The position numbers and the translations under genes are program-made. From a virus (taxonomy: Duplodnaviria; Heunggongvirae; Uroviricota; Caudoviricetes): a stretch of 13,512 nucleotides of DNA. The stretch lies in IMG/VR virus record IMGVR_UViG_2693429524_000013; one strand, 5' to 3'. Positions 2,066 to 13,247 of the stretch are shown one piece after another (position 1 is the stretch's first letter; every line of letters begins with the position of its first letter). Under the pieces are notes generated by a model. The model did not search any database. It was not told where the DNA came from and saw nothing but the letters and a program-made list of their open reading frames with translations.

Positions 2066-3112
2066 TTATTTAGCCTTGGCTTTTGCCAGAGCAGCGGCGG
2101 CGGAGTTACTAACACTCACTTTAACCACAACTTCAGGCATCATGTTCATGAAAGCATAAGAGGATTCAATGAAGATTTCTCGTTTACCTCTGGACTCTTC
2201 CATATACATGAAAGCTTCACGTGCAGCGCCGTTTGCAAGCTTCAGGTTGCGAGCGCAAGGGCCGAAAAATTGAGTATAAACGCCCACCATATCGCCTAAC
2301 GCATGTGGCTGGAATTGTGGGACCAGATAAGCAGTATTCTCTGGCAGACTATCCATTTGCACCACACGCAGGGCTAAGCCCGGAATGCGGAAGGTCGGGA
2401 AGCCCGGCAGAATATCCTCAGGGAACATCAGGCCTTTGTCAGTGATATTTTGATTGCCGAACAACAGCACCTTACGGAGCAGTTCATCAGTCTGAATTGC
2501 AGCAAAGAGTTCAGCACGGCAGAACAGGGTGAAACCACGCAGAGCACGAACGACACCACGCTGTTTAACCTTGCTCAGTGCAACCAGGTCCTGCAGCTGT
2601 TTAAGGATATCTTTAGCTAAATCCACTTCTGAAGTGGTTTGCTGTGCGCCCAGCAGTTCGCACACATTCAGTTCTTTACCCTTGGTGAGGATAATTTTGT
2701 TCTCAAAGAGAGCAAGCTGGCGTGCTTCTTCGTGGGTCTGGCGTAAGCCTTCGCCAAGCTGAATAACACGACGAGCGGTTACAGACTCTAAATTCTCTTC
2801 GGAATCTTTGCCCGGAACGCGGATACCCTGCCAGTCAGAAGGATAAATAGCACTTGATGCGGCAGTGAATGCCATATCACCCGTGCCCGTTTCACGCTCA
2901 TCTGCGGTAATGGTCGCCATCTGTTCACCGTAGCGAGGATACTGACCGAAAGCAGATTGTTTCACCTGGCGAACTTTGTCATATTCAAATTTAAAGGTAT
3001 TGCACAGAGCAGTAGTGTTGAAGATATCCATTGCTGAAATAATCTGGTTATCCAGCGGGATGTCTTTAATCAGACCACACAGATCGCGAACTTCGAATTC
3101 TTTCTTAGCCAT
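2066..3112 (-). CDS. phage major capsid protein, lambda gpE-like
   Basis: Track ORF 2066..3118 begins at TTG; ATG at 3112 has AGGAGG 6 nt upstream. Size (~348 aa) fits gpE-type capsid proteins. Segment RRVIQLGEGLRQTHEEARQLALFENKIILTKGK resembles lambda gpE region RRRIIMQNMRDEELAIAQVEEMQAVSAVLKGK (alignment recalled from memory, not computed). Preceded by a ~110-aa gene, as D precedes E in lambda. Confidence 0.65.
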   Translation of the reverse strand: MAKKEFEVRDLCGLIKDIPLDNQIISAMDIFNTTALCNTFKFEYDKVRQVKQSAFGQYPRYGEQMATITADERETGTGDMAFTAASSAIYPSDWQGIRVPGKDSEENLESVTARRVIQLGEGLRQTHEEARQLALFENKIILTKGKELNVCELLGAQQTTSEVDLAKDILKQLQDLVALSKVKQRGVVRALRGFTLFCRAELFAAIQTDELLRKVLLFGNQNITDKGLMFPEDILPGFPTFRIPGLALRVVQMDSLPENTAYLVPQFQPHALGDMVGVYTQFFGPCARNLKLANGAAREAFMYMEESRGKREIFIESSYAFMNMMPEVVVKVSVSNSAAAALAKAKAK

Positions 3113-3123
3113 CTTCAACCTCC

Positions 3124-3459: not shown

Positions 3460-3787
3460 TTGATCACCTGCGATTTAAATTAACTCCCCTCAAAGAGTTC
3501 CGGTATAACCTCTCAAACCGCGACAGGCTCGGGCCGAAAAGTTATGCCGGAAATCTAAAGGGAAATTGATACAAGGAAAGGGAGATAGCCCCGCACCGTC
3601 CAAGCGGGGGCTATTCCATATGGGGAAAACCAACAACAGTTGGCTGATAGTTCACAGTATGGTTACGGTTACTAGAGAGCACTATCACGAAAGGCACTCC
3701 CCCGAATCAGTTCAGGCTGCGGTCACATCAGCGGGGAAATACCTTTCGGGATAGCTACCCACACAGAAAACCCGCAAAAGAAAACTG

Positions 3788-3796
3788 TGTGGATAA
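3788..3796 (-). promoter_or_regulatory. perfect DnaA-box consensus TTATCCACA
   Basis: Plus strand reads TGTGGATAA, so the minus strand is TTATCCACA. Overlaps the 3' arm of an 8-bp inverted repeat CCACACAG (3759-3766) / CTGTGTGG (3785-3792). Single occurrence; within the leader of the head operon. Confidence 0.3.
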
Positions 3797-3943
3797 CTAG
3801 CCCAATAGGAGAATTAATCGACCACTCAACGATGATCAGGGTAGTGTTATTTATAAGGCGGCACCGCTACCTGGTCGCCGTTACTTTGGAGGAAAATACG
3901 GCAAATCAAGATCTTCTCACATTGATATTGACGCCATATGTAT

Positions 3944-3972
3944 ATTATATCAGTATTTACTCACATTGTCAA
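3944..3972 (-). promoter_or_regulatory. consensus sigma70 promoter reading leftward toward the head module
   Basis: On the minus strand: TTGACA (3972-3967), 17-bp spacer, TATAAT (3949-3944). Both hexamers are perfect consensus. Predicted TSS near 3937, giving a ~480-nt leader before the gene at 3459. Confidence 0.55.
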
Positions 3973-4195
3973 CACCCTGATTATATAAATTCTAATAATT
4001 AGCGTAGTAACGGTATTTTCAGACCTCTATCAATCCCATCAATACGTCACCCCACCCTTTAGACATATACATCTATCACTACTTTATAAAGCCTGATAGA
4101 TATCCGTTGATCCTGATCAAGGTTTTCCGGGGATTTACCCGGTTATAGTTCGAATCAAGGAAGGGGAGCATTGATAGCACCCAAACCGAACAAAC

Positions 4196-4213
4196 AAATC
4201 AACTTCTCGCAAA
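4196..4213 (+). promoter_or_regulatory. recurrent 18-nt leader motif AAATCAACTTCTCGCAAA, copy 1
   Basis: Exact 18-mer also at 4739-4756. In both cases it ends 11 nt before an ATG, with a purine-rich SD in between. Confidence 0.5.
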
Positions 4214-4224
4214 AGGTGATAGTT

Positions 4225-4347
4225 ATGGGTATCAAGAACAGTGCCAGCGCATGGCAAAAGGCCAGGTTTCATCACCCACACATTGTTAAGGCAATTGAGG
4301 TGGTTGGAGTGTTAGCCCTGATGTTAGCTCTGTGTGTGGAGGTGTGA
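4225..4347 (+). CDS. possible small hydrophobic peptide (40 aa)
   Basis: ATG at 4225 with AAGGTGA SD. Preceded 11 nt upstream by the recurrent motif AAATCAACTTCTCGCAAA. C-terminal half is hydrophobic (VVGVLALMLALCVEV). Below the 60-aa cutoff of the ORF track; uncertain. Confidence 0.3.
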   Translation: MGIKNSASAWQKARFHHPHIVKAIEVVGVLALMLALCVEV

Positions 4348-4449
4348 GATGGGCAAAGGAGGCAAAGCATTTTTTAATAGGTCTGGCTATCCTGGATGTT
4401 CTACTAATCATGATTGAGCGGAGTTTATGAACAGCATTGAGAGGAGTTT

Positions 4450-4710
4450 ATGACGGGGGCTAAAGATATCAGGAGACTGAGGGAAGAGCTGATAGCTGAA
4501 ATTAAAGCTAAGGCAAAGCAAATGGAGATAGCCGCACAAATGGATGTAGCGGAACAGATGTACAAGATGGTTGAAGAGGGAACACCACGACAGGTTATCG
4601 CTAAAACCTTCGGTGTGGGGATCGCCACCGTGCACAGAAGGCTGAAAGCCTATGCCGACTACCACAACATTGAGAGAGGGGAGGATGGGAGATTTAAGAA
4701 GAATAAATAG
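4450..4710 (+). CDS. small helix-turn-helix DNA-binding protein (86 aa)
   Basis: ORF 4450..4710 with GAGGAG SD. Segment TPRQVIAKTFGVGIATVHRRLK is a classic HTH pattern. N-terminal part reads as coiled-coil-like. Confidence 0.6.
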   Translation: MTGAKDIRRLREELIAEIKAKAKQMEIAAQMDVAEQMYKMVEEGTPRQVIAKTFGVGIATVHRRLKAYADYHNIERGEDGRFKKNK

Positions 4711-4767: not shown

Positions 4768-5289
4768 ATGTTATTCCAGAAAGACAAAGAATCAGTAAAT
4801 AAAAGGCTTTTTAAAGAACTGGTAAAAATGTTCTTTCAGTACACTGCAGCGTTTTTGATAGCCGGGCCTTGGTTAATGGCTATCTGTTTTTACCCTGCTA
4901 CCTTGTTTATTGGCAGTAGCAAGTTCGGCGATGGCCCGTTTCATGTGGATATTGGTTTTATAGATTCTCTCCTGATCCGTCCTATAAATGCTGTTCTCAA
5001 TGCTTTCTACTTCCCAACTAGTCTAGAGGGGTGGGCGGTAACCTGGGGTGTTTTAGGCTTAGCATATGTATATTGGTTGGTTGGCTTTTTGTGGGGTGCA
5101 ATCTGTGCTCTCCTCGATATTGATACAGGATCAAGCCGTAGGAGTAGTGGTAATAATAGCGGAGCGGGTGTATATGCACACGTAGGTACCAGAGGGGTAA
5201 GTATCACCGCAGGTACCCGATTCGCTGGCGGCTGGCTGAGTATAGGCAAACGCGGCGTTAGTTGGAGAAAAAGCAAAAAACTGTTCTGA
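4768..5289 (+). CDS. predicted membrane protein (173 aa)
   Basis: ORF 4768..5289. Recurrent motif ends 11 nt before the ATG, followed by AGGGG SD. At least two hydrophobic helices (FFQYTAAFLIAGPWLMAICFYPATLFIG and AVTWGVLGLAYVYWLVGFLWGAICALL) and a Gly/Ser/Arg-rich C-terminal tail. Followed by a strong intrinsic terminator. Confidence 0.6.
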   Translation: MLFQKDKESVNKRLFKELVKMFFQYTAAFLIAGPWLMAICFYPATLFIGSSKFGDGPFHVDIGFIDSLLIRPINAVLNAFYFPTSLEGWAVTWGVLGLAYVYWLVGFLWGAICALLDIDTGSSRRSSGNNSGAGVYAHVGTRGVSITAGTRFAGGWLSIGKRGVSWRKSKKLF

Positions 5290-5296
5290 CCTACCA

Positions 5297-5318
5297 GGGG
5301 GCCATCACGGCCCCTTTT
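5297..5318 (+). terminator. rho-independent terminator after the membrane-protein gene
   Basis: GC-rich 6-bp stem GGGGCC/GGCCCC with 5-nt loop, followed by TTTT (5315-5318). Lies 8 nt past the stop at 5289. Confidence 0.6.
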
Positions 5319-5404
5319 CTATTTCCAGTCGCTATAGCTCCTGAGTAATTCCACTCCCTGAGGTCGTGATCAATTCCACACCCTACCCCCTGATCAATTA
5401 ACCC

Positions 5405-5448
5405 CTATTTAATGGGTATTTAATGCCTATTTATTGATTTAATCCGTT
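5405..5448. repeat. AT-rich 11-bp tandem repeats (3-4 units)
   Basis: ctatttaatgg / gtatttaatgc / ctatttattga / tttaatccgtt in perfect tandem from 5405. Period is about one helical turn; candidate DNA-unwinding or bending element. Confidence 0.5.
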
Positions 5449-5514
5449 TTATGCCACAACCGCCCGGTTGACAGAGTAAGAGAGAGGGTGTAACCCTTTT
5501 TCGTAATACTAATG

Positions 5515-5530
5515 AAATCAATAAGTTAGC
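5515..5530 (+). repeat. 16-nt direct repeat AAATCAATAAGTTAGC, copy 1
   Basis: Exact 16-mer also at 13259-13274. Both copies are preceded 13-14 nt upstream by TAATA(C/T)T and lie shortly after a gene end. Confidence 0.5.
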
Positions 5531-6618
5531 TTAATAGGCCTTTTCTCTATTTTTGTCAAATTTAACATACCCTAAAAAACTGCAAAATCTGGCTGCAAGA
5601 TTATCTGCAGCTGGATTTCTTACACCTCATTTTGTGGTATCACCCTGACTAGTTTGTGCATAAATTGAACAGTTTTTAACATTTCCTCTTCACCTGGTAA
5701 CCACACAAAAAGCTAAAAACGAGGCACAGATAATCTTAGAGGCCTATTTTCTTGTTATCACTCTGGAAACGTCGTAGAAGTGATTTTGATGAAAGGCGAC
5801 CTACCCTATTACACCCCCATTTTTTGTTATCACAATTGCATCCTGTGTGGCTATATGGCTATGTGCTGAAAGCGGTCTCGGGTGTGGGTGTCAGAAATAT
5901 CCATTAGCGGTATTTGAGCTTATGGGTAACTCGTCTGAGGTGCCAGGCAGGCGCTCCCCTACCTCCCTTTTTTCTTCTAACAATTCTCAAATATCACACC
6001 ACTGCCCACCACGTTGCTATTATGTTAATTCTTAAGCTTTGCTGTATGTTGTGCACATTATTTATTCAGGTGGCTGTACGTAAATTCTGTGCCCACTGAT
6101 CATGATTTTTAAATCAGATTTTGTAGTGCGGTTTCTTAGTGCTGATAAGATCTATTATGTTAAATGCAATTTTCCCAACCCTTCAAATCAATGACTTACA
6201 TGTAAGCATGCACTAACACCACACACAGCACATTAGACGTATAGATGGCTATATCCCACATATTTGATTGTTTTGTAGTCATTCCCCTGATCATTTAACC
6301 AGTATAGTTTGTTATCTGCAGACCACAAAATCGGAATTTACATCTGATTAACATAATCTGTTAGCATGATCACCATTACCCACACAACAATAACCCCATG
6401 TAAGCCTCTTCAGGCAATTTATCGGCGTGTTGGTGTGAACAGTCTTTCATGTTCTTTATGTATCAGTTGTCCTGTGTGGTGATTTGGTGGACTGCCCCAG
6501 GGGCCATACTTATGATGCCCGGTCAACATAGCTGTTGATAAAATCAACGGGTGTTGACCTGCATATTTCCCACACATGAGAGGAAATCAGAGCAAAGAGA
6601 GAGGAGAGAGGTTTGTTA

Positions 6619-6668
6619 GTCACATATGGTGATTTGAGCTCATCTCAAACCTTCTACGAAGGCCTTTG
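6619..6668. repeat. tandem-hairpin element, copy A
   Basis: Hairpin 1: TTTGAG (6633-6638) / CTCAAA (6644-6649). CC linker. Hairpin 2: CCTTC (6650-6654) / GAAGG (6658-6662) with loop TAC. Flanked by TCACAT..GGTGATTTGAG and GGCCTTTG. Homologous to copy B. Confidence 0.5.
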
Positions 6669-6719
6669 CTAGTCAAAATCAAGTCACATTAGAGTCAAAT
6701 CAGATGCAATCAATCCCCC

Positions 6720-6778
6720 ACCTGTTGGGATTTCCCACATGTTCAACCATACACAGGAGCTAACCTGTTGGGATTTCC
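6720..6778. repeat. pair of 16-bp direct repeats ACCTGTTGGGATTTCC
   Basis: Identical 16-mers at 6720-6735 and 6763-6778 (43 bp apart). They share the ACCTGT core with the iterons immediately downstream. Confidence 0.6.
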
Positions 6779-6813
6779 TACAACCCCTTTCAGTCATACT
6801 CAGGCACCACACC

Positions 6814-7054
6814 CCGGTAAATATTTCCCTACTACCCCGGAGAATTTCTCCGCACTACCTGTAAAGAATTTTCACACCTGTGTGTTTATACAATCATACT
6901 CTCCTGTTTTGCAGTCATTGCACCCATGATACACAGCCCTAACCTGTAAAATATTTTTACTACCCCGCCAATAATACGGCCCATACCTGTAAAATATTTT
7001 TACTACTACCTGTCAAAATCTTTTACTACTACCTGTAAAAATATTTGACACTAA
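6814..7054. repeat. iteron array: six direct repeats of a ~21-23 bp unit
   Basis: Copies of CCTGTAAAATATTTTTACTAC-like units start at 6814, 6858, 6953, 6986, 7009 and 7032. The last three are exactly tandem at 23-bp spacing. Same orientation throughout; no ORF. Confidence 0.7.
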
Positions 7055-7101
7055 TAGATAAAGTAATAGACCACACAATAGATCCCCCTAACCCCCCAGG
7101 G

Positions 7102-7142
7102 GGGAATGGGGAGGGATCAGAGAGTGGGGAAGGTTTTCTAAG
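7102..7142. other. C6-A-G6 palindrome followed by G-tract-rich block
   Basis: CCCCCCAGGGGGG (7102-7114) followed by GGGGGGAATGGGGAGGGATCAGAGAGTGGGGAAGG. Four G-runs of 3 or more; possible G-quadruplex on the plus strand. Confidence 0.35.
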
Positions 7143-7245
7143 GGAAAAGCTTAACCCACAAATGAAAGCCTAAAGAGCATTAGCGACTCTTTAGGCAATC
7201 TGTGTGTGGGGTGACAATGTATTCCATACATGACACGTCACCCTG

Positions 7246-7316
7246 CTCACATGTGTGGTCCACTTCGTGGATTTGAGTTCACTCCGTAACTCAAACCCTC
7301 TACGAGGGCCTTGTGT
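7246..7316. repeat. tandem-hairpin element, copy B
   Basis: Hairpin 1: TTTGAGTT (7272-7279) / AACTCAAA (7288-7295). CC linker. Hairpin 2: CCCTC (7296-7300) / GAGGG (7304-7308) with loop TAC. Differs from copy A by a T-A to C-G double change that keeps the pair. Confidence 0.5.
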
Positions 7317-7410
7317 GGGGAGCGTAGTGCGATAGCACGTAGCTATATAATGTGGAGTCCGGATAAGAGACTTCTGTTTCCAATCCGGACCGTTTAAGCG
7401 AGTGGTTTCT

Positions 7411-7436
7411 CGCGCGCGTGCACGCACACATATATA
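7411..7436. other. 26-nt perfect alternating pyrimidine-purine tract (Z-DNA-prone)
   Basis: CGCGCGCGTGCACGCACACATATATA alternates pyrimidine/purine without a break for 26 nt. Read directly from the sequence. Confidence 0.5.
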
Positions 7437-7616
7437 AAGGATACACTCATAAATCGAAAATAAGGCCCCTAAATGGCCTTCTGGCTGCATTAACTAGTTT
7501 GAGTAGTGTAATTGCATTACCTGATGCTCAAATCGCGTTGTAGGGCCTCTTATGATGTTTGAGTTTAACACCCTCCAAAGTTTTAACAAAAAGTGCTCTC
7601 CCTCCATTGTGGGCCA

Positions 7617-7646
7617 TTGACAATCTTATTGCATAAATGCTATAAG
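7617..7646 (+). promoter_or_regulatory. possible second plus-strand promoter
   Basis: TTGACA (7617-7622), 18-bp spacer, TATAAG (7641-7646). Motif CCATTGACAAT recurs at 7745 within a perfect palindrome ATTGACAA-ttgg-TTGTCAAT (7746-7765). Confidence 0.3.
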
Positions 7647-7936
7647 TTATTCTGTTTTTGACACGGTAGGGGACATTAATAATGCTTACCCCTTTGCTGT
7701 GGACTTGTTTGTACCTATAGCTCGCCTAAATGATAATGATTCCCATTGACAATTGGTTGTCAATATGATAAGATTATAGATAGTGGGAGAAACAGATCCG
7801 GAGGTCAACGTGGAACTGAGCGACGCTATAGCGATCATCAACCTGGCTGTAATGTGGTGCGGTGTTGCCTACATAGCCGGAGTAACTGCAATCGACAACC
7901 TTGAAGAAAAAATGATAGATAAATACAAAAAGATTG

Positions 7937-7965
7937 TTGACAATCTCGCAAATAGCTGATAAAAT
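7937..7965 (+). promoter_or_regulatory. sigma70 promoter for the plus-strand operon
   Basis: TTGACA (7937-7942), 17-bp spacer, TAAAAT (7960-7965). The -35 sits in an imperfect palindrome GATTGTTGACAATC. About 120 nt upstream of the first gene (8088). Confidence 0.5.
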
Positions 7966-8317: not shown

Positions 8318-9202
8318 ATGGCAAACAATAAACTGGGGGCACATTTCACCCCCATTTTTAAACGTTTTATCAAGTATAATTTTGAAAATCCAATTGCAAA
8401 AACTACAACAGGCAAAGAGAGATTTAATTTAAATGCGACGGAATTGATAATTTACGGGGAAATGGTTGGCTTTCATTTAAACGGCAAAGAAATATTCATC
8501 TCGGAGCAGACCTTAGCAGATGATTGGGATTTTTCAAGACCAACGATTATTAAAGCTATTAAATCTCTAGTAAATGCTGGGATTATTTCTAAAGATAACC
8601 GGAAAGGCAAATCTAACATTTACAAACTGTTAATTACACCTGAGCAGTTTGATAAAATGTGCGATGAGCAGGGTATTAAAACCTTAGACAGTGTGGGAGA
8701 CAGCAAAGAGGCACCTGCTACACAGGCCCAAGATAATCAACAGGAAGCCCCAAAACAAGCCACACAGCAGCCTGAAAAGCCCGAGGCAATGCAATCCCCT
8801 TCCCAACCTAAAAAAGAACACAGAGAACGCCGTAGAGACGCTGGCAAACGTGAAATAGATGAGCACGGTTATCCGATTCTGACAAGCGATGAAATGAATG
8901 CCAGATATAAAGTAATTCAGGCCGCATTTAAAGATCAGAAGAGAATTAAATTATCTGAATTGCGTGATACATTTTACGGGCCGGAGGTGATGGATAAAAT
9001 TAAAGGCACTATTCCTGATAAAATCTGGAAAGAGGAAGATTACTGGCACCTGACAGAGCAGGCCCTTAAGGTAGCTCAACACGTGGTTAAAAGAGGCAAA
9101 TCAATTATTATTGATTCTATTAGTCATGGCTATGATGCACCGAAAGAAAGGTTGTGGAACAACTGCAAGCTTGTAAAAGGCGAATTGACAATTACAAAAT
9201 AA
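8318..9202 (+). CDS. winged-helix DNA-binding protein (294 aa), possibly replication-initiator/organiser-like
   Basis: ORF 8318..9202 with GAGGGA SD. N-terminal pattern (ELIIYGEMVGF...ISEQTLADDWDFSRPTIIKAIKSLVNAGIIS) resembles wHTH domains of phage O-type/DnaD-like replication proteins. Q/P/K-rich low-complexity linker, then a C-terminal domain. Family assignment is inference. Confidence 0.55.
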   Translation: MANNKLGAHFTPIFKRFIKYNFENPIAKTTTGKERFNLNATELIIYGEMVGFHLNGKEIFISEQTLADDWDFSRPTIIKAIKSLVNAGIISKDNRKGKSNIYKLLITPEQFDKMCDEQGIKTLDSVGDSKEAPATQAQDNQQEAPKQATQQPEKPEAMQSPSQPKKEHRERRRDAGKREIDEHGYPILTSDEMNARYKVIQAAFKDQKRIKLSELRDTFYGPEVMDKIKGTIPDKIWKEEDYWHLTEQALKVAQHVVKRGKSIIIDSISHGYDAPKERLWNNCKLVKGELTITK

Positions 9203-11144: not shown

Positions 11145-13247
11145 ATGGCAATGAAGGAAGTCGCCAGACTAACAAACGTTATTTACTGGGATTCTGATAA
11201 ATCCTCCTGGCGAAAAGAAGTTAAACGGCTTGAGGATTATAAAAAATCCTGGAAGAAAGCCACCGACGATATAGCTAAAGCTGATTTTAAATCTAATCAG
11301 GCTGTGCTCAGAACACAAAGAACACGCGCTAAGGTGGAAGAGCAGATTGCCAGAGCACAGAAGAAACAACGTGCTCAGGCTGTCAGCCGTCTGACCGGGG
11401 GCAATAATCCGGAGCTCTCCTCTATGCGCAAGTTCTATCAGCAGCAAGCCAGAGAAGCCGCCAGACAACAAAAACTGTTAGATCGTAGTGTTGGAGATGT
11501 TCAGCACAGAAAAGCACGTGTAGGGGCCAACAGTGCACGAATCAGCAGCATGTTTGATGGATCCCTGGTTGCTCAGTTCCAATCCAGAATCCAGAGAGTT
11601 AATGCTGATTATGCTAAAGGGGCTATTAACCTGCAGACCTATAATCAGAAAATGGCTCGGCTCAGAGCTGAAATGAAGATGGCAACAGTAGAGGCCGGAA
11701 AATTTCAGAGCAGACTGGATAAACTGGCATCAGGTGCCAGCAAGGTGCATGACAACCTGGGCAAAATCAACTCCACACTAGGCAAGATAGCCATTGGCCT
11801 TACTGCCGCTGGCTGGGGTGTTCAGCGTGCTGTTAGTGGTGCTATGGGTAGCCTTGCAGATCGCAACAGTGCCTACTTCGGTTTGATGGCACAGAACAAG
11901 GATGATAAAGCCAAGACTGACCAGCAGATGGCCTACGTCAAAAGAATCTCTTATGACTATGGGATGGATCAGCGTGAGACCGAAGGCGGCTTTATGCGCT
12001 TTGCTGCAGCCACACCAAGCATAAAAGAGAAAGATAAGCAGGATCTCTTTGAGGCTATGGCGATTAAAGGCCGATCAGTGGGTGCTACTGCGGACCAACA
12101 GAACAGGGCTATCGTTGCACTAGGACAGATATATAGCAAGGGCGGTCGAGTGTATGCGGAAGAGCTTAAGGGCCAGCTGTCAGAAGCCCTGGCAGGTTCT
12201 CAGGTAGATTTCACTAAGGCCGCTATCGATGCCGGAATCATCAAGAAAGAGGAAGAATTTAATAAAGCCCTTGAAGATGGCAAGATCACCATGGACAAGC
12301 TTCTTCCTTCCCTAGTGAAAATCTGGGGTGCTGCAAAAGAAACTAAAGCTTTTGCTGAATCCATGAAACAGCCAGAAGTAGCAATGCAGCGCATGAAAAA
12401 CAGCTTTAACGAGCTGGCGATTCAGTTTATGGGTGTTGTGGATCCTGCCGATGGCGTTGTTAGCTTATCTGAATCTCTGATCTCCATCTTCGAAGACCTC
12501 ACCACTGATATGGACGGCAGCGGGAGCGCGGCAAAACAGTTTGGTGAAGCAGTCGGTGCTGCCATGCGGGAGATCATGTATTGGGTAGGCTTCGCTAAGG
12601 GCTATATCGAGGTCAAGGCTAAAGAGTTCGGCATGACCGGATCAGAGGTTGGCGAGCTTATCGGGAAACTAGTAGTCGGCTTAGCAGGTCTGAAAGTTAT
12701 TACCACACTGCTTTCCCCTCTAACCGGATTTGTTTCACTTGTCACTCAGCTGATAGCCTTGTTAGGCAAAATCCCTGGTATGAGCAAGCTTATGGCATCT
12801 GCCTCAGGTGGAACGGCAACAGGAGCAGCGGTCATCAGTGCAGGATCTAACGCTGAAAGAAGTTTCATTGATGGCAAGACGCAGGAAATGAGTAAGGAGA
12901 ACTCAAAACAGGGCGCTTTGTTTGAGCTGGGGAGATTTGTCAGCAATGCTGGCGCACTGTTCACACCTGGCGGTGATACTGGTCCTTTGTTCGATCAGGT
13001 CAAAGGCTGGTTTAATAAAGGGCCAACATTGACAGTAGACACTGGCATCAGACCAACACCAACAGGCGGCATAGCTATCCAGAATGGTGGATATCAACCA
13101 GTCCAAGTAAATGTAGCCCCACAAGGTGAGATTTCCGGCAAATGGGAGATAACCATCGATGAGGGGGGAATTGCCAGGGTGATCCAGAAGGAAGTCAGCG
13201 ATCAGTTGGATTGGAAAGCCACACAGGAATCTAACCAGCTTTTCTAA
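11145..13247 (+). CDS. phage tail tape measure protein (700 aa)
   Basis: ORF 11145..13247 with GAGGTG SD 6 nt upstream. N-terminal ~200 aa charged and coiled-coil-like. Central segment (ATADQQNRAIVALGQIYSKGGRVYAEELKGQLSEALAG) matches the tape-measure domain signature as I recall it. C-terminal part has hydrophobic Gly/Ala-rich segments typical of these proteins. Confidence 0.75.
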   Translation: MAMKEVARLTNVIYWDSDKSSWRKEVKRLEDYKKSWKKATDDIAKADFKSNQAVLRTQRTRAKVEEQIARAQKKQRAQAVSRLTGGNNPELSSMRKFYQQQAREAARQQKLLDRSVGDVQHRKARVGANSARISSMFDGSLVAQFQSRIQRVNADYAKGAINLQTYNQKMARLRAEMKMATVEAGKFQSRLDKLASGASKVHDNLGKINSTLGKIAIGLTAAGWGVQRAVSGAMGSLADRNSAYFGLMAQNKDDKAKTDQQMAYVKRISYDYGMDQRETEGGFMRFAAATPSIKEKDKQDLFEAMAIKGRSVGATADQQNRAIVALGQIYSKGGRVYAEELKGQLSEALAGSQVDFTKAAIDAGIIKKEEEFNKALEDGKITMDKLLPSLVKIWGAAKETKAFAESMKQPEVAMQRMKNSFNELAIQFMGVVDPADGVVSLSESLISIFEDLTTDMDGSGSAAKQFGEAVGAAMREIMYWVGFAKGYIEVKAKEFGMTGSEVGELIGKLVVGLAGLKVITTLLSPLTGFVSLVTQLIALLGKIPGMSKLMASASGGTATGAAVISAGSNAERSFIDGKTQEMSKENSKQGALFELGRFVSNAGALFTPGGDTGPLFDQVKGWFNKGPTLTVDTGIRPTPTGGIAIQNGGYQPVQVNVAPQGEISGKWEITIDEGGIARVIQKEVSDQLDWKATQESNQLF

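Follow-up and report, generated by a model that had tools for sequence, protein, structure and literature searches.

A stretch of DNA of 13,512 nucleotides, filed as the virus record IMGVR_UViG_2693429524_000013 and called the window below, raises the question of why it contains an uninterrupted run of 26 alternating pyrimidines and purines at positions 7411–7436 (CGCGCGCGTGCACGCACACATATATA). The window is a complete contig, identical to the E. coli contig CYFD01000085.1, and represents an entire circular E. coli plasmid of about 13.5 kb from a widespread family. A first-pass annotation had described the run as a potential Z-DNA-forming element which may influence neighbouring promoters or recombination. 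We compared it with the same position in 41 related loci (42 sequences together with the window, whose own contig was counted once) and tentatively favour, at slightly less than an even chance, an explanation as this plasmid's allele of a hypervariable simple-sequence joint that is prone to slippage and recombination, rather than as a sequence-specific signal.

The tract reads (CG)4 TG CA CG (CA)3 (TA)3, and its length of exactly 26 nt is set by T7410 on the 5′ side and A7437 on the 3′ side, which both stop the alternation. It is the longest alternating run of the window, the runners-up measuring 17 nt (5168–5184) and 12 nt. With a fraction of alternating steps of 0.475, 5.8e-5 runs of at least 26 nt are expected in the window; shuffled purine/pyrimidine strings reached 26 nt in 5 of 5000 cases, the longest run in 2000 first-order Markov simulations was 22 nt, and none of 200 dinucleotide-preserving shuffles contained a match to the 26-mer. 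The run is real and non-random, and both the extent and the chance expectation of well below 0.01 that had been claimed for it were borne out. It consists of two parts, as seen from alignments and allele tables. The first is a conserved CG-repeat joint (7411–7418), which appears in relatives as C(T/C)CGCGCG, mostly followed by GG. The second is an allele-specific alternating block (7419–7436, TGCACGCACACATATATA), whose place is taken in other plasmids by the different alternating sequences TGCATGCACGTA, CGTGTATGCACACACGTA, TGCGTATGTGTGCATGCAT or CATGTGTGGGCGTATACGTA.

An alternating run was present at the tract position in all 41 related loci, with lengths of 11–26 nt and strongly different sequences. 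The commonest length was 19 nt (13 loci), followed by 18 nt (nine loci) and 11 nt (five loci); 26 and 25 nt were found in four loci each, 21 and 14 nt in two each, and 22 and 13 nt in one each. What is kept across these loci is the alternation and the CG joint, not the sequence, and only the tract start C(T/C)CGCGC is conserved among the alleles. These comprise CGCGCG(C/G)GTGCACGCACACATATATA, CGCGCGTGCATGCACGTA, CGTGTATGCACACACGTA (allele E), CGCGCGTGCGTATGTGTGCATGCAT, CGCGC(N)CATGTGTG-GG-CGTATACGTA, and one with a long insertion. The commonest allele, CGCGCG-GG-TGCAC, is broken by GG into runs of 6 and 19 nt, and the C-type alleles are split into 8–14 + 11 nt. The window reads CGCGCG-CG-TGCAC, a single G-to-C difference from the commonest allele which joins the 6- and 19-nt runs to 26 nt, and the uninterrupted form is in the minority. 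Close relatives vary between (TA)3 and (TA)4, between (CA)3 and (CA)4 or between (CA)3(TA)3 and (CA)4(TA)2, or differ by the loss of one CG or by single transitions, and some of these variants of 2 nt or one unit occur on otherwise identical left flanks of 250 nt, as expected of repeat copy-number variation. Counted over the tract alleles, 164 transitions stand against 67 transversions, compared with 27 against 84 in the adjoining flank; the pairs counted are non-independent, and the count is partly circular with alternation itself.

The same position also proved to be a border between exchangeable modules. The left modules fall into two types with sub-variants and the right modules into at least five; they are combined in many ways, with C(T/C)CGCGC at the junction, and in four plasmids (L002, L041, L043 and L045) a 52-nt cassette of three hairpins is inserted exactly between CGCGCG and (G/C)GTGCAC, itself terminating in the joint-like sequence TGTGCG. 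Modules are re-assorted and indels end at the joint, with breakpoints judged by eye. The recombination aspect of the first-pass annotation has gained indirect comparative support from these module combinations and from the cassette insertion directly after CGCGCG. Further cassettes lie upstream of the tract: parsing of 38 loci revealed zero to three of them per plasmid, of several types and in varying order, and always bounded by (TG)2-4G2-6. The window carries two such hairpin cassettes (7212–7251 and 7259–7311) in an array at 7201–7320 on the plus strand, with (TG)nG(m) joints at 7201–7211, 7252–7258 and 7312–7320. The CG joint at 7411–7418 is a transition variant of these upstream joints. 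Because alternating joints are shared with the upstream cassettes and with a phage element described next, we count the tract among this class of joints, here enlarged by its allele-specific block.

The phage in question is rV5 (LR597647.1), which contains an origin-like region from 64,350 down to 63,760, on the strand matching the plus strand of the plasmid (L033 13760–14350). Four dyad iterons (CTGTCCGTnnnACGGACAC) are followed there by an AT-rich stretch of about 130 nt and then by an element rich in hairpins, and the plasmid origin region shows the same architecture of iterons and then an AT-rich stretch. The rV5 hairpin element is 83–85% identical over 62–82 nt to the modules that adjoin the tract on its left in plasmids whose left module is of "type-2", and was found at 90–100% identity in 119 phage records, almost always unannotated. 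The rV5 region also carries AAGGCCCCTAAAT, which occurs just right of the tract as well. Upstream of the phage iterons lies a gene for a 116-aa winged-helix protein with weak similarity (E = 0.009) to the DNA-binding portion of the plasmid's Rep. A 6-bp helix is represented by CCGAC/GUCGG in the phage and GCUGCC/GGCAGC in type-2 plasmids, with three of six pairs changed on both sides and 100% of the cells paired; as a control for a mis-specified helix, we shifted the 3′ partner by one to three columns, which left at most 53% paired. Other compensated stems are CUCGCC/GGCGAG vs. CUCUCC/GGAGAG and GGCC/GGCC vs. GCGC/GCGC. The shared element and its compensated stems place the tract in a non-coding element of phage ancestry that flanks the origin and is constrained in its structure; the compensated pairs themselves lie in the neighbouring hairpins, not in the tract. 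At the position of the tract, the phage reads CGCGCG-AGCTTGGATGAAGTTTATGTGTGGAAACGGACAAG and alternates in CGCGCG and TATGTGTG only. A genuine ATGTGTGG is found there in the C-type alleles and in the rV5 homologue, and the CGCGCGGG of the common allele is a transition variant of it. This homology was detected only with the other left-module type as the query: a megablast of the region against the phage collection gave no match, and a distant search with the window's own allele returned chance-level matches only.

From these comparisons we infer a process in which replication slippage would add or remove dinucleotides at the tract, and recombination or template switching would swap, insert or delete the adjoining modules. 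The conserved (CG)3-4 joint would belong to the same class as the (TG)2-4G2-6 joints of the cassettes and be followed by the allele-specific block; in most relatives the two parts are separated by GG, and the G-to-C change fuses them here into 26 nt. The tract would then act, or merely exist, at the DNA level as a short alternating microhomology, and the outcome would be a mosaic control region between the iteron origin and the rep operon. Transitions and steps of 2 nt would automatically keep the alternation, and as a by-product no other site of the plasmid would flip to Z-DNA as easily when negative supercoiling is strong. Similar arrangements are known from mosaic phage genomes, in which short conserved boundary or linker sequences mark module junctions, and from the REP/BIME mosaic arrays of E. 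coli. Like these, the short joints (TG)nG(m) and CGCGCG flank exchangeable hairpin modules of variable number and order; unlike them, they consist of alternating TG or CG steps followed by G runs and separate non-coding hairpin cassettes of 35–55 nt adjoining a replication origin, and no transposase or RAYT-like enzyme is encoded by the plasmid.

Several points weigh against an explanation by slippage and module exchange. Slippage at three to four repeat units is normally slow, and on its own it leaves unexplained why deeply different alleles all alternate; the mixture of CG, TG, CA and TA steps, not one homogeneous repeat, looks like a better fit to a constraint on alternation than to neutral slippage. 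All alleles also keep a modelled B–Z transition at superhelical densities (σ) of −0.037 to −0.046, most of them beating any other site of the window, which selection for Z-forming potential would predict as well. Module exchange could happen anywhere in the conserved stretches, the breakpoints were placed by eye, and no enzyme for cassette movement was identified. The evidence for a joint is direct but descriptive. That for a constraint on alternation, for which Z-forming potential would be the obvious candidate, is indirect, consisting of the alternation of deeply different alleles, their similar modelled transition points and the above counts of transitions and transversions.

The main competing explanation is a selected, supercoil-responsive Z-DNA element, which would flip under the negative supercoils that accumulate in the wake of RNA polymerase as it departs from the rep-operon promoter, or when the origin opens, and which would absorb about 4–5 turns and thereby couple transcription, origin melting and topology. 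We consider it rather unlikely. With 5 CG, 5 CA/TG and 3 TA steps, the tract surpasses the roughly 12 bp of alternation rich in CG and CA/TG that mark a Z-tract, and alternating purine-pyrimidine tracts are known Z-forming sequences (PMC5295012). Its potential was calculated with a crude two-state B–Z model that combined approximate dinucleotide energies after Ho et al. 1986 with a cost of 5 kcal/mol for each junction and the standard free energy of supercoiling. In this model, the first 20 bp of the tract would undergo the transition at σ of about −0.037, the best value of the window, with the next best site at −0.045, and plasmid alleles that differ widely in sequence cluster at −0.039 to −0.040. 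Such a switch would also agree with the fact that alternation rather than sequence is kept in 41 of 41 related loci. The tract lies upstream of the rightward rep promoter (7746–7774) and about 330 bp from the AT-rich origin stretch; according to the twin-domain model, negative supercoils gather upstream of a promoter, which is where the tract sits.

Against this stand the interruption of the commonest allele by GG, the C-type alleles with their short runs and σ values down to −0.046, and the rV5 homologue with its limited alternation, for which the model predicts −0.051. Furthermore, the unconstrained steady-state superhelicity of E. coli is usually quoted as about −0.025 to −0.03. The predicted threshold of the tract, calculated with approximate energy parameters, would be reachable in purified plasmid and is more negative than this usual in vivo level, so Z-DNA would need transient, transcription-driven supercoiling. 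The formation of Z-DNA at the tract is therefore plausible in purified plasmid or under transcription-driven supercoiling, as far as the model goes; the tract is predicted to be the most Z-prone site of the plasmid, at a threshold beyond the usual superhelicity in the cell and in a form that few relatives share. Known Z-forming tracts in supercoiled plasmids include (CG)n and (CA)n inserts and the natural tract of pBR322. The present tract resembles them in its 26 bp of perfect alternation rich in CG and CA/TG, its modelled flip at about −0.037 and its position upstream of a promoter, and differs in that no more than four CG steps follow one another and its last six bases are TA steps, which form Z-DNA poorly; in addition, its commonest allele is interrupted and its predicted threshold lies beyond the in vivo steady state.

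A bolder version would make the tract the terminal joint of an undescribed cassette array punctuated by (TG)nG(m), with alternation selected as a supercoil-driven B–Z switch that links transcription of the rep operon to origin firing, in a widespread and likewise undescribed class of E. coli plasmids that parasitise rV5-like lytic phages and share their origin-like element. We regard this combination as quite improbable. If alternation were indeed selected, the tract would be among the few natural Z-prone bacterial sequences with a role beside a replication origin.

In a second alternative, the tract would be a variable arm or linker within a nucleic acid that is single-stranded and structured, either the leader of a plus-strand RNA or origin-proximal single-stranded DNA, whose hairpins would be recognised by replication or regulatory proteins common to rV5-like phages, so that only the pairing or spacing of the tract matters. 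The compensatory changes in the neighbouring hairpins described above (three of six pairs on both sides, fully paired, and the two further stems) agree with such a structure, as does the more stable folding of the wider region on the plus than on the minus strand in 24 of 27 distinct plasmids. Some alleles can form a hairpin of 5–7 bp that begins with the conserved GCG (GCGCCC-GUGUGU-GGGCGU and GCGUGCG-UAUGUG-UGCAUGC), and transition-only evolution would also be expected of helices that tolerate G-U pairs. However, the best hairpin of the window allele and of the commonest allele has only 3 bp with −3.6 to −4.8 kcal/mol, and no allele beats dinucleotide-preserving shuffles: the window allele, at −3.6 kcal/mol, has a z-score of +1.2, and the 11 alleles range from −1.5 to +1.5. 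No relevant Rfam match was obtained at gathering or permissive thresholds in the window, in a relative with the other module type or in the rV5 region, and no conserved promoter or terminator brackets the tract. The cassette triloops, which read TAC/TTC on the plus and GTA/GAA on the minus strand, fit either strand as the acting one. We therefore rejected the tract as a hairpin arm in its own right and judge the wider arm or linker proposal as unlikely. An argument for a plus-strand RNA from UNCG tetraloops in the cassettes was withdrawn after these loops had been re-parsed as the 3-nt loops TAC/TTC/TCT/TCC. A likeness of CCGGAAGGAGGCAGCAAAG to the conserved domain of SRP (4.5S) RNA was likewise dropped, as it had no Rfam match.

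The surroundings of the tract recall lambda-type origins, which combine dyad iterons with an AT-rich region, and hairpin-rich priming signals such as the G4-type single-strand initiation sites. The tract shares with them a position among hairpins next to dyad iterons and AT-rich DNA, in a plasmid with an O/DnaD-type winged-helix initiator; unlike these, the tract itself is not a hairpin, and sequence similarity to these signals was neither seen nor searched for.

As a third alternative, the tract may bind a protein that prefers alternating or palindromic DNA, either DNA gyrase, at a strong site like those that stabilise small plasmids, or the plasmid-encoded 86-aa helix-turn-helix (HTH) protein, which would also read the motif TGTGTGG. 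Alternating purine-pyrimidine sequence is favoured at gyrase cleavage sites, short palindromes occur in every allele (GCGTGCACGC, CGTGCATGCACG, CGTATACG, CCCGCGCGGG), and the plasmid does encode a small HTH_7 protein (gene at 4450–4710). The related motif TGTGTGG is 14-fold enriched in the window (20 copies vs. 1.4 expected) and, near the origin, points away from the iteron/AT-rich region on both flanks, in the plasmid as in rV5. Since short palindromes are expected from alternation itself, and those observed vary between alleles without obvious co-variation with a variant of a protein, we think a protein site very doubtful.

A promoter element, with TATATAAAGG at the tract end as the −10 box and the tract as a strength-tuning spacer like those of phase-variable dinucleotide-repeat promoters, is highly improbable: A/T-rich hexamers do follow the block in several alleles (TATAAA, TAAGAT, TAATAT) and the numbers of TA and CA units vary between relatives, but a promoter scan, run on the window only, called no sigma-70-type promoter on either strand at 7400–7450, the would-be −35 box (TCGCGC, as the −35 position reads, or TCTCGC) fits TTGACA at one of six positions, the hexamer position is not conserved, with allele G lacking any TAnnnT in the segment as read by eye, and the T4-type late motif TATAAATA, also considered, is not enriched in rV5 (7 copies vs. 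about 4 expected). Of the −10-like element in the first-pass annotation, only the letters at the tract end remain, and in alleles C, D, E and G unrelated sequence stands even in their place. The "TCTCGC core" with which the tract was said to begin does exist as a hexamer (7408–7413) overlapping its first 3 bases; it is not enriched, with 7 copies vs. about 6.6 expected on both strands, and is the 3′ arm of a small hairpin on the plus strand (GCGAG-TGGTTT-CTCGC, 7398–7413).

Three further candidates were rejected. A phase-variable switch repeat does not apply, with the tract lying outside any promoter spacer or conserved reading frame. In Haemophilus influenzae, a (TA)n spacer between the divergent hif promoters serves as a contingency repeat; the tract is like it in that the dinucleotide copy number differs between close relatives, (TA)3/(TA)4 and (CA)3/(CA)4, and unlike it in its very short blocks and in its position, which is neither between recognisable −35 and −10 boxes nor in a gene. 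A coding function is excluded by the 2-nt indels and variable stops, which leave no conserved frame: the plus-strand open reading frame (ORF) starting with ATG at 7350 has 15 aa in the window and 11 aa in the phage and is variable elsewhere, and a 99-aa ORF on the minus strand (7191–7490) is disrupted by cassette indels in relatives. A protelomerase target or cruciform palindrome was considered with regard to telO of the linear plasmid-prophage N15, which has an alternating TACGCGCGTA centre in a long perfect palindrome. Both share a CG-rich alternating core in a phage-related plasmid; unlike telO, the tract is not a perfect palindrome, its sole inverted repeat (I18) having overlapping 17-nt arms of 76% complementarity, the plasmid family is reported as circular, and no protelomerase is encoded among the window proteins.

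The tract is located within a 2.5-kb stretch without conserved genes (5290–7809), bounded by the gene for a 173-aa membrane protein and by a 49-aa ORF heading the rep operon, about 330 bp to the right of the iteron/AT-rich origin and 310 bp to the left of the rep-operon promoter. The origin-like region (6720–7083) consists of dyad-symmetric iterons at 6720–7049, for example TACC-TGTAAAATATTTTTAC, followed by AT-rich DNA at 7050–7083, and includes the repeat families D1, D2, D4 and D8. A segment with runs of G and C lies 3′ of the AT-rich stretch; at 7084–7135, directly after that stretch, we observed the family-conserved sequence CCCCCTAACCCCCCAGGGGGGAATGGGGAGGGATCAGAGAGTGGGG with a C6/G6 hairpin and four G-runs, which is a possible G-quadruplex. 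A hairpin at 7168–7196 precedes the cassette array, and further hairpin modules follow it at 7321–7413. The upstream cassettes, found in the same place as in the window in L001–L048, measure 35–55 nt, and most of their stems carry 3-nt loops reading TAC, TTC or TCT on the plus and GTA, GAA or AGA on the minus strand. The module at 7357–7390 on the plus strand, with the stem GTCCGGAT/ATCCGGAC (inverted repeat I23), corresponds in position to the helix in which rV5 phages and the other plasmid type differ by compensatory changes. At the position of the small hairpin at 7398–7413, other plasmids have a different one, GGAGGC-AGCAAAGA-GTCTCC.

To the right of the tract, an A-rich spacer leads to the hairpin AAGGCC-CCTAAAT-GGCCTT at 7462–7480 (together 7437–7494, plus strand), which has a compensated variant GCGC...GCGC in L018 and was called terminator-like on the minus strand, with a T-run that is not conserved. 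Overlapping with this hairpin is the 22-nt stretch ATGGCCTTCTGGCTGCATTAAC (7473–7494), invariant in nine of ten aligned family members (one substitution, in L006) and present with up to 3 mismatches in 37 of the 41 related loci (38 sequences with the window); single-base differences occur in L006, L016, L017, L024 and L028. More hairpins lie between this stretch and the best sigma-70-like promoter of the region, TTGACA-17-TAAGAT at 7746–7774 on the plus strand, which was identified by the promoter scan, is conserved in family members and precedes the 49-aa ORF (7810–7959), a 69-aa ORF and rep (8318–9202). The palindrome TTGACAATTGGTTGTCAA (7746–7763), within which this promoter was located and which is also conserved in the family, offers two −35-like boxes placed back to back upstream of the rep operon; from its layout, it is likely an operator with divergent promoters.

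On its own, the tract is a modest feature: another alternating run with Z-DNA potential and a compound dinucleotide repeat. If the slippage and module-exchange reading is right, it marks the place at which a very common small E. coli plasmid has its control region rebuilt, and would be a convenient marker and test bed for mosaicism driven by short alternating repeats. The stronger lead is its context, namely a common and apparently undescribed phage-related plasmid with capsid and tail genes and no packaging genes, an unannotated hairpin-rich origin-like element common to rV5 phages, and a variable array of (TG)nG(m)-separated cassettes. Members of the plasmid family are circular, non-mobilizable E. 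coli plasmids of 13.2–13.7 kb. Besides rep, whose product is a replication initiator with an O/DnaD-type winged helix, the window contains genes for a neck protein (236–694), a Dit-like tail-tube initiator (691–1611) and the major head (capsid) protein (2066–3118), all on the minus strand, and a tape-measure protein (11145–13247). Compared with their counterparts in rV5-like Vequintavirus phages, the neck protein shows 45% identity, the tube initiator 51% and the tape-measure protein 25%; neither a terminase nor a portal gene was present in the gene content of the window. The plasmid looks like a satellite or assembly parasite of Vequintavirus phages; no description of this plasmid family or of an rV5 satellite was found in the literature. 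The element is very common: the assembly collection lists its 48-aa protein in 1762 blocks, and in 1421 of these the longest contig that carries it has 10–20 kb. Relatives of the capsid protein were found in E. coli only, all with at least 82% identity, so that distant relatives for testing the conservation of the tract are lacking. Searches of viral contigs and species-representative genomes gave no match to the conserved 26-mer pattern and no locus on the basis of the capsid protein. No tRNA or tmRNA was found.

Some minor observations were made along the way. The second-longest alternating run (GTGTATATGCACACGTA, 5164–5184), within the 3′ part of the ORF for the 173-aa membrane protein, resembles tract allele E (CGTGTATGCACACACGTA), probably by coincidence. 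In rV5, TGTGTGG is about 3-fold enriched (54 copies vs. about 17 expected) and clusters in two gene-poor regions; sites are found at 63.9–65.9 kb and 102.6–107.2 kb (L032–L034), and in the window for example at 3759, 3786, 4276, 4333 and 5701–7312. Its orientation in rV5 also flips near 104.3 kb, and from this distribution it could be a polar replication-related signal such as a priming site. It was rejected as a promoter element, its orientation being independent of gene direction in rV5 coding regions, and as a general DnaA box, since a perfect TTATCCACA is found only at the 3786 copy, together with the adjacent CCACACA at 3759. A second gene-free region of about 1 kb (3460–4450) between the capsid operon and the HTH gene contains two divergent CCACACA...TGTGTGG pairs (3759/3786 and 4276/4333), the first of which lies inside two perfect DnaA-box sequences, TTATCCACA and its complement TGTGGATAA. 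Finally, some copies of the element (L012, L013, L014, L039 and L002) are joined to larger replicons or interrupted by resistance elements, the contexts being an IncFII repA with a Tn3-type transposase and beta-lactamase as neighbours, or an IS and beta-lactamase in place of the origin region on a 353-kb contig, and the GenBank entry CP043822 (39.6 kb) is a tandem trimer of the element.

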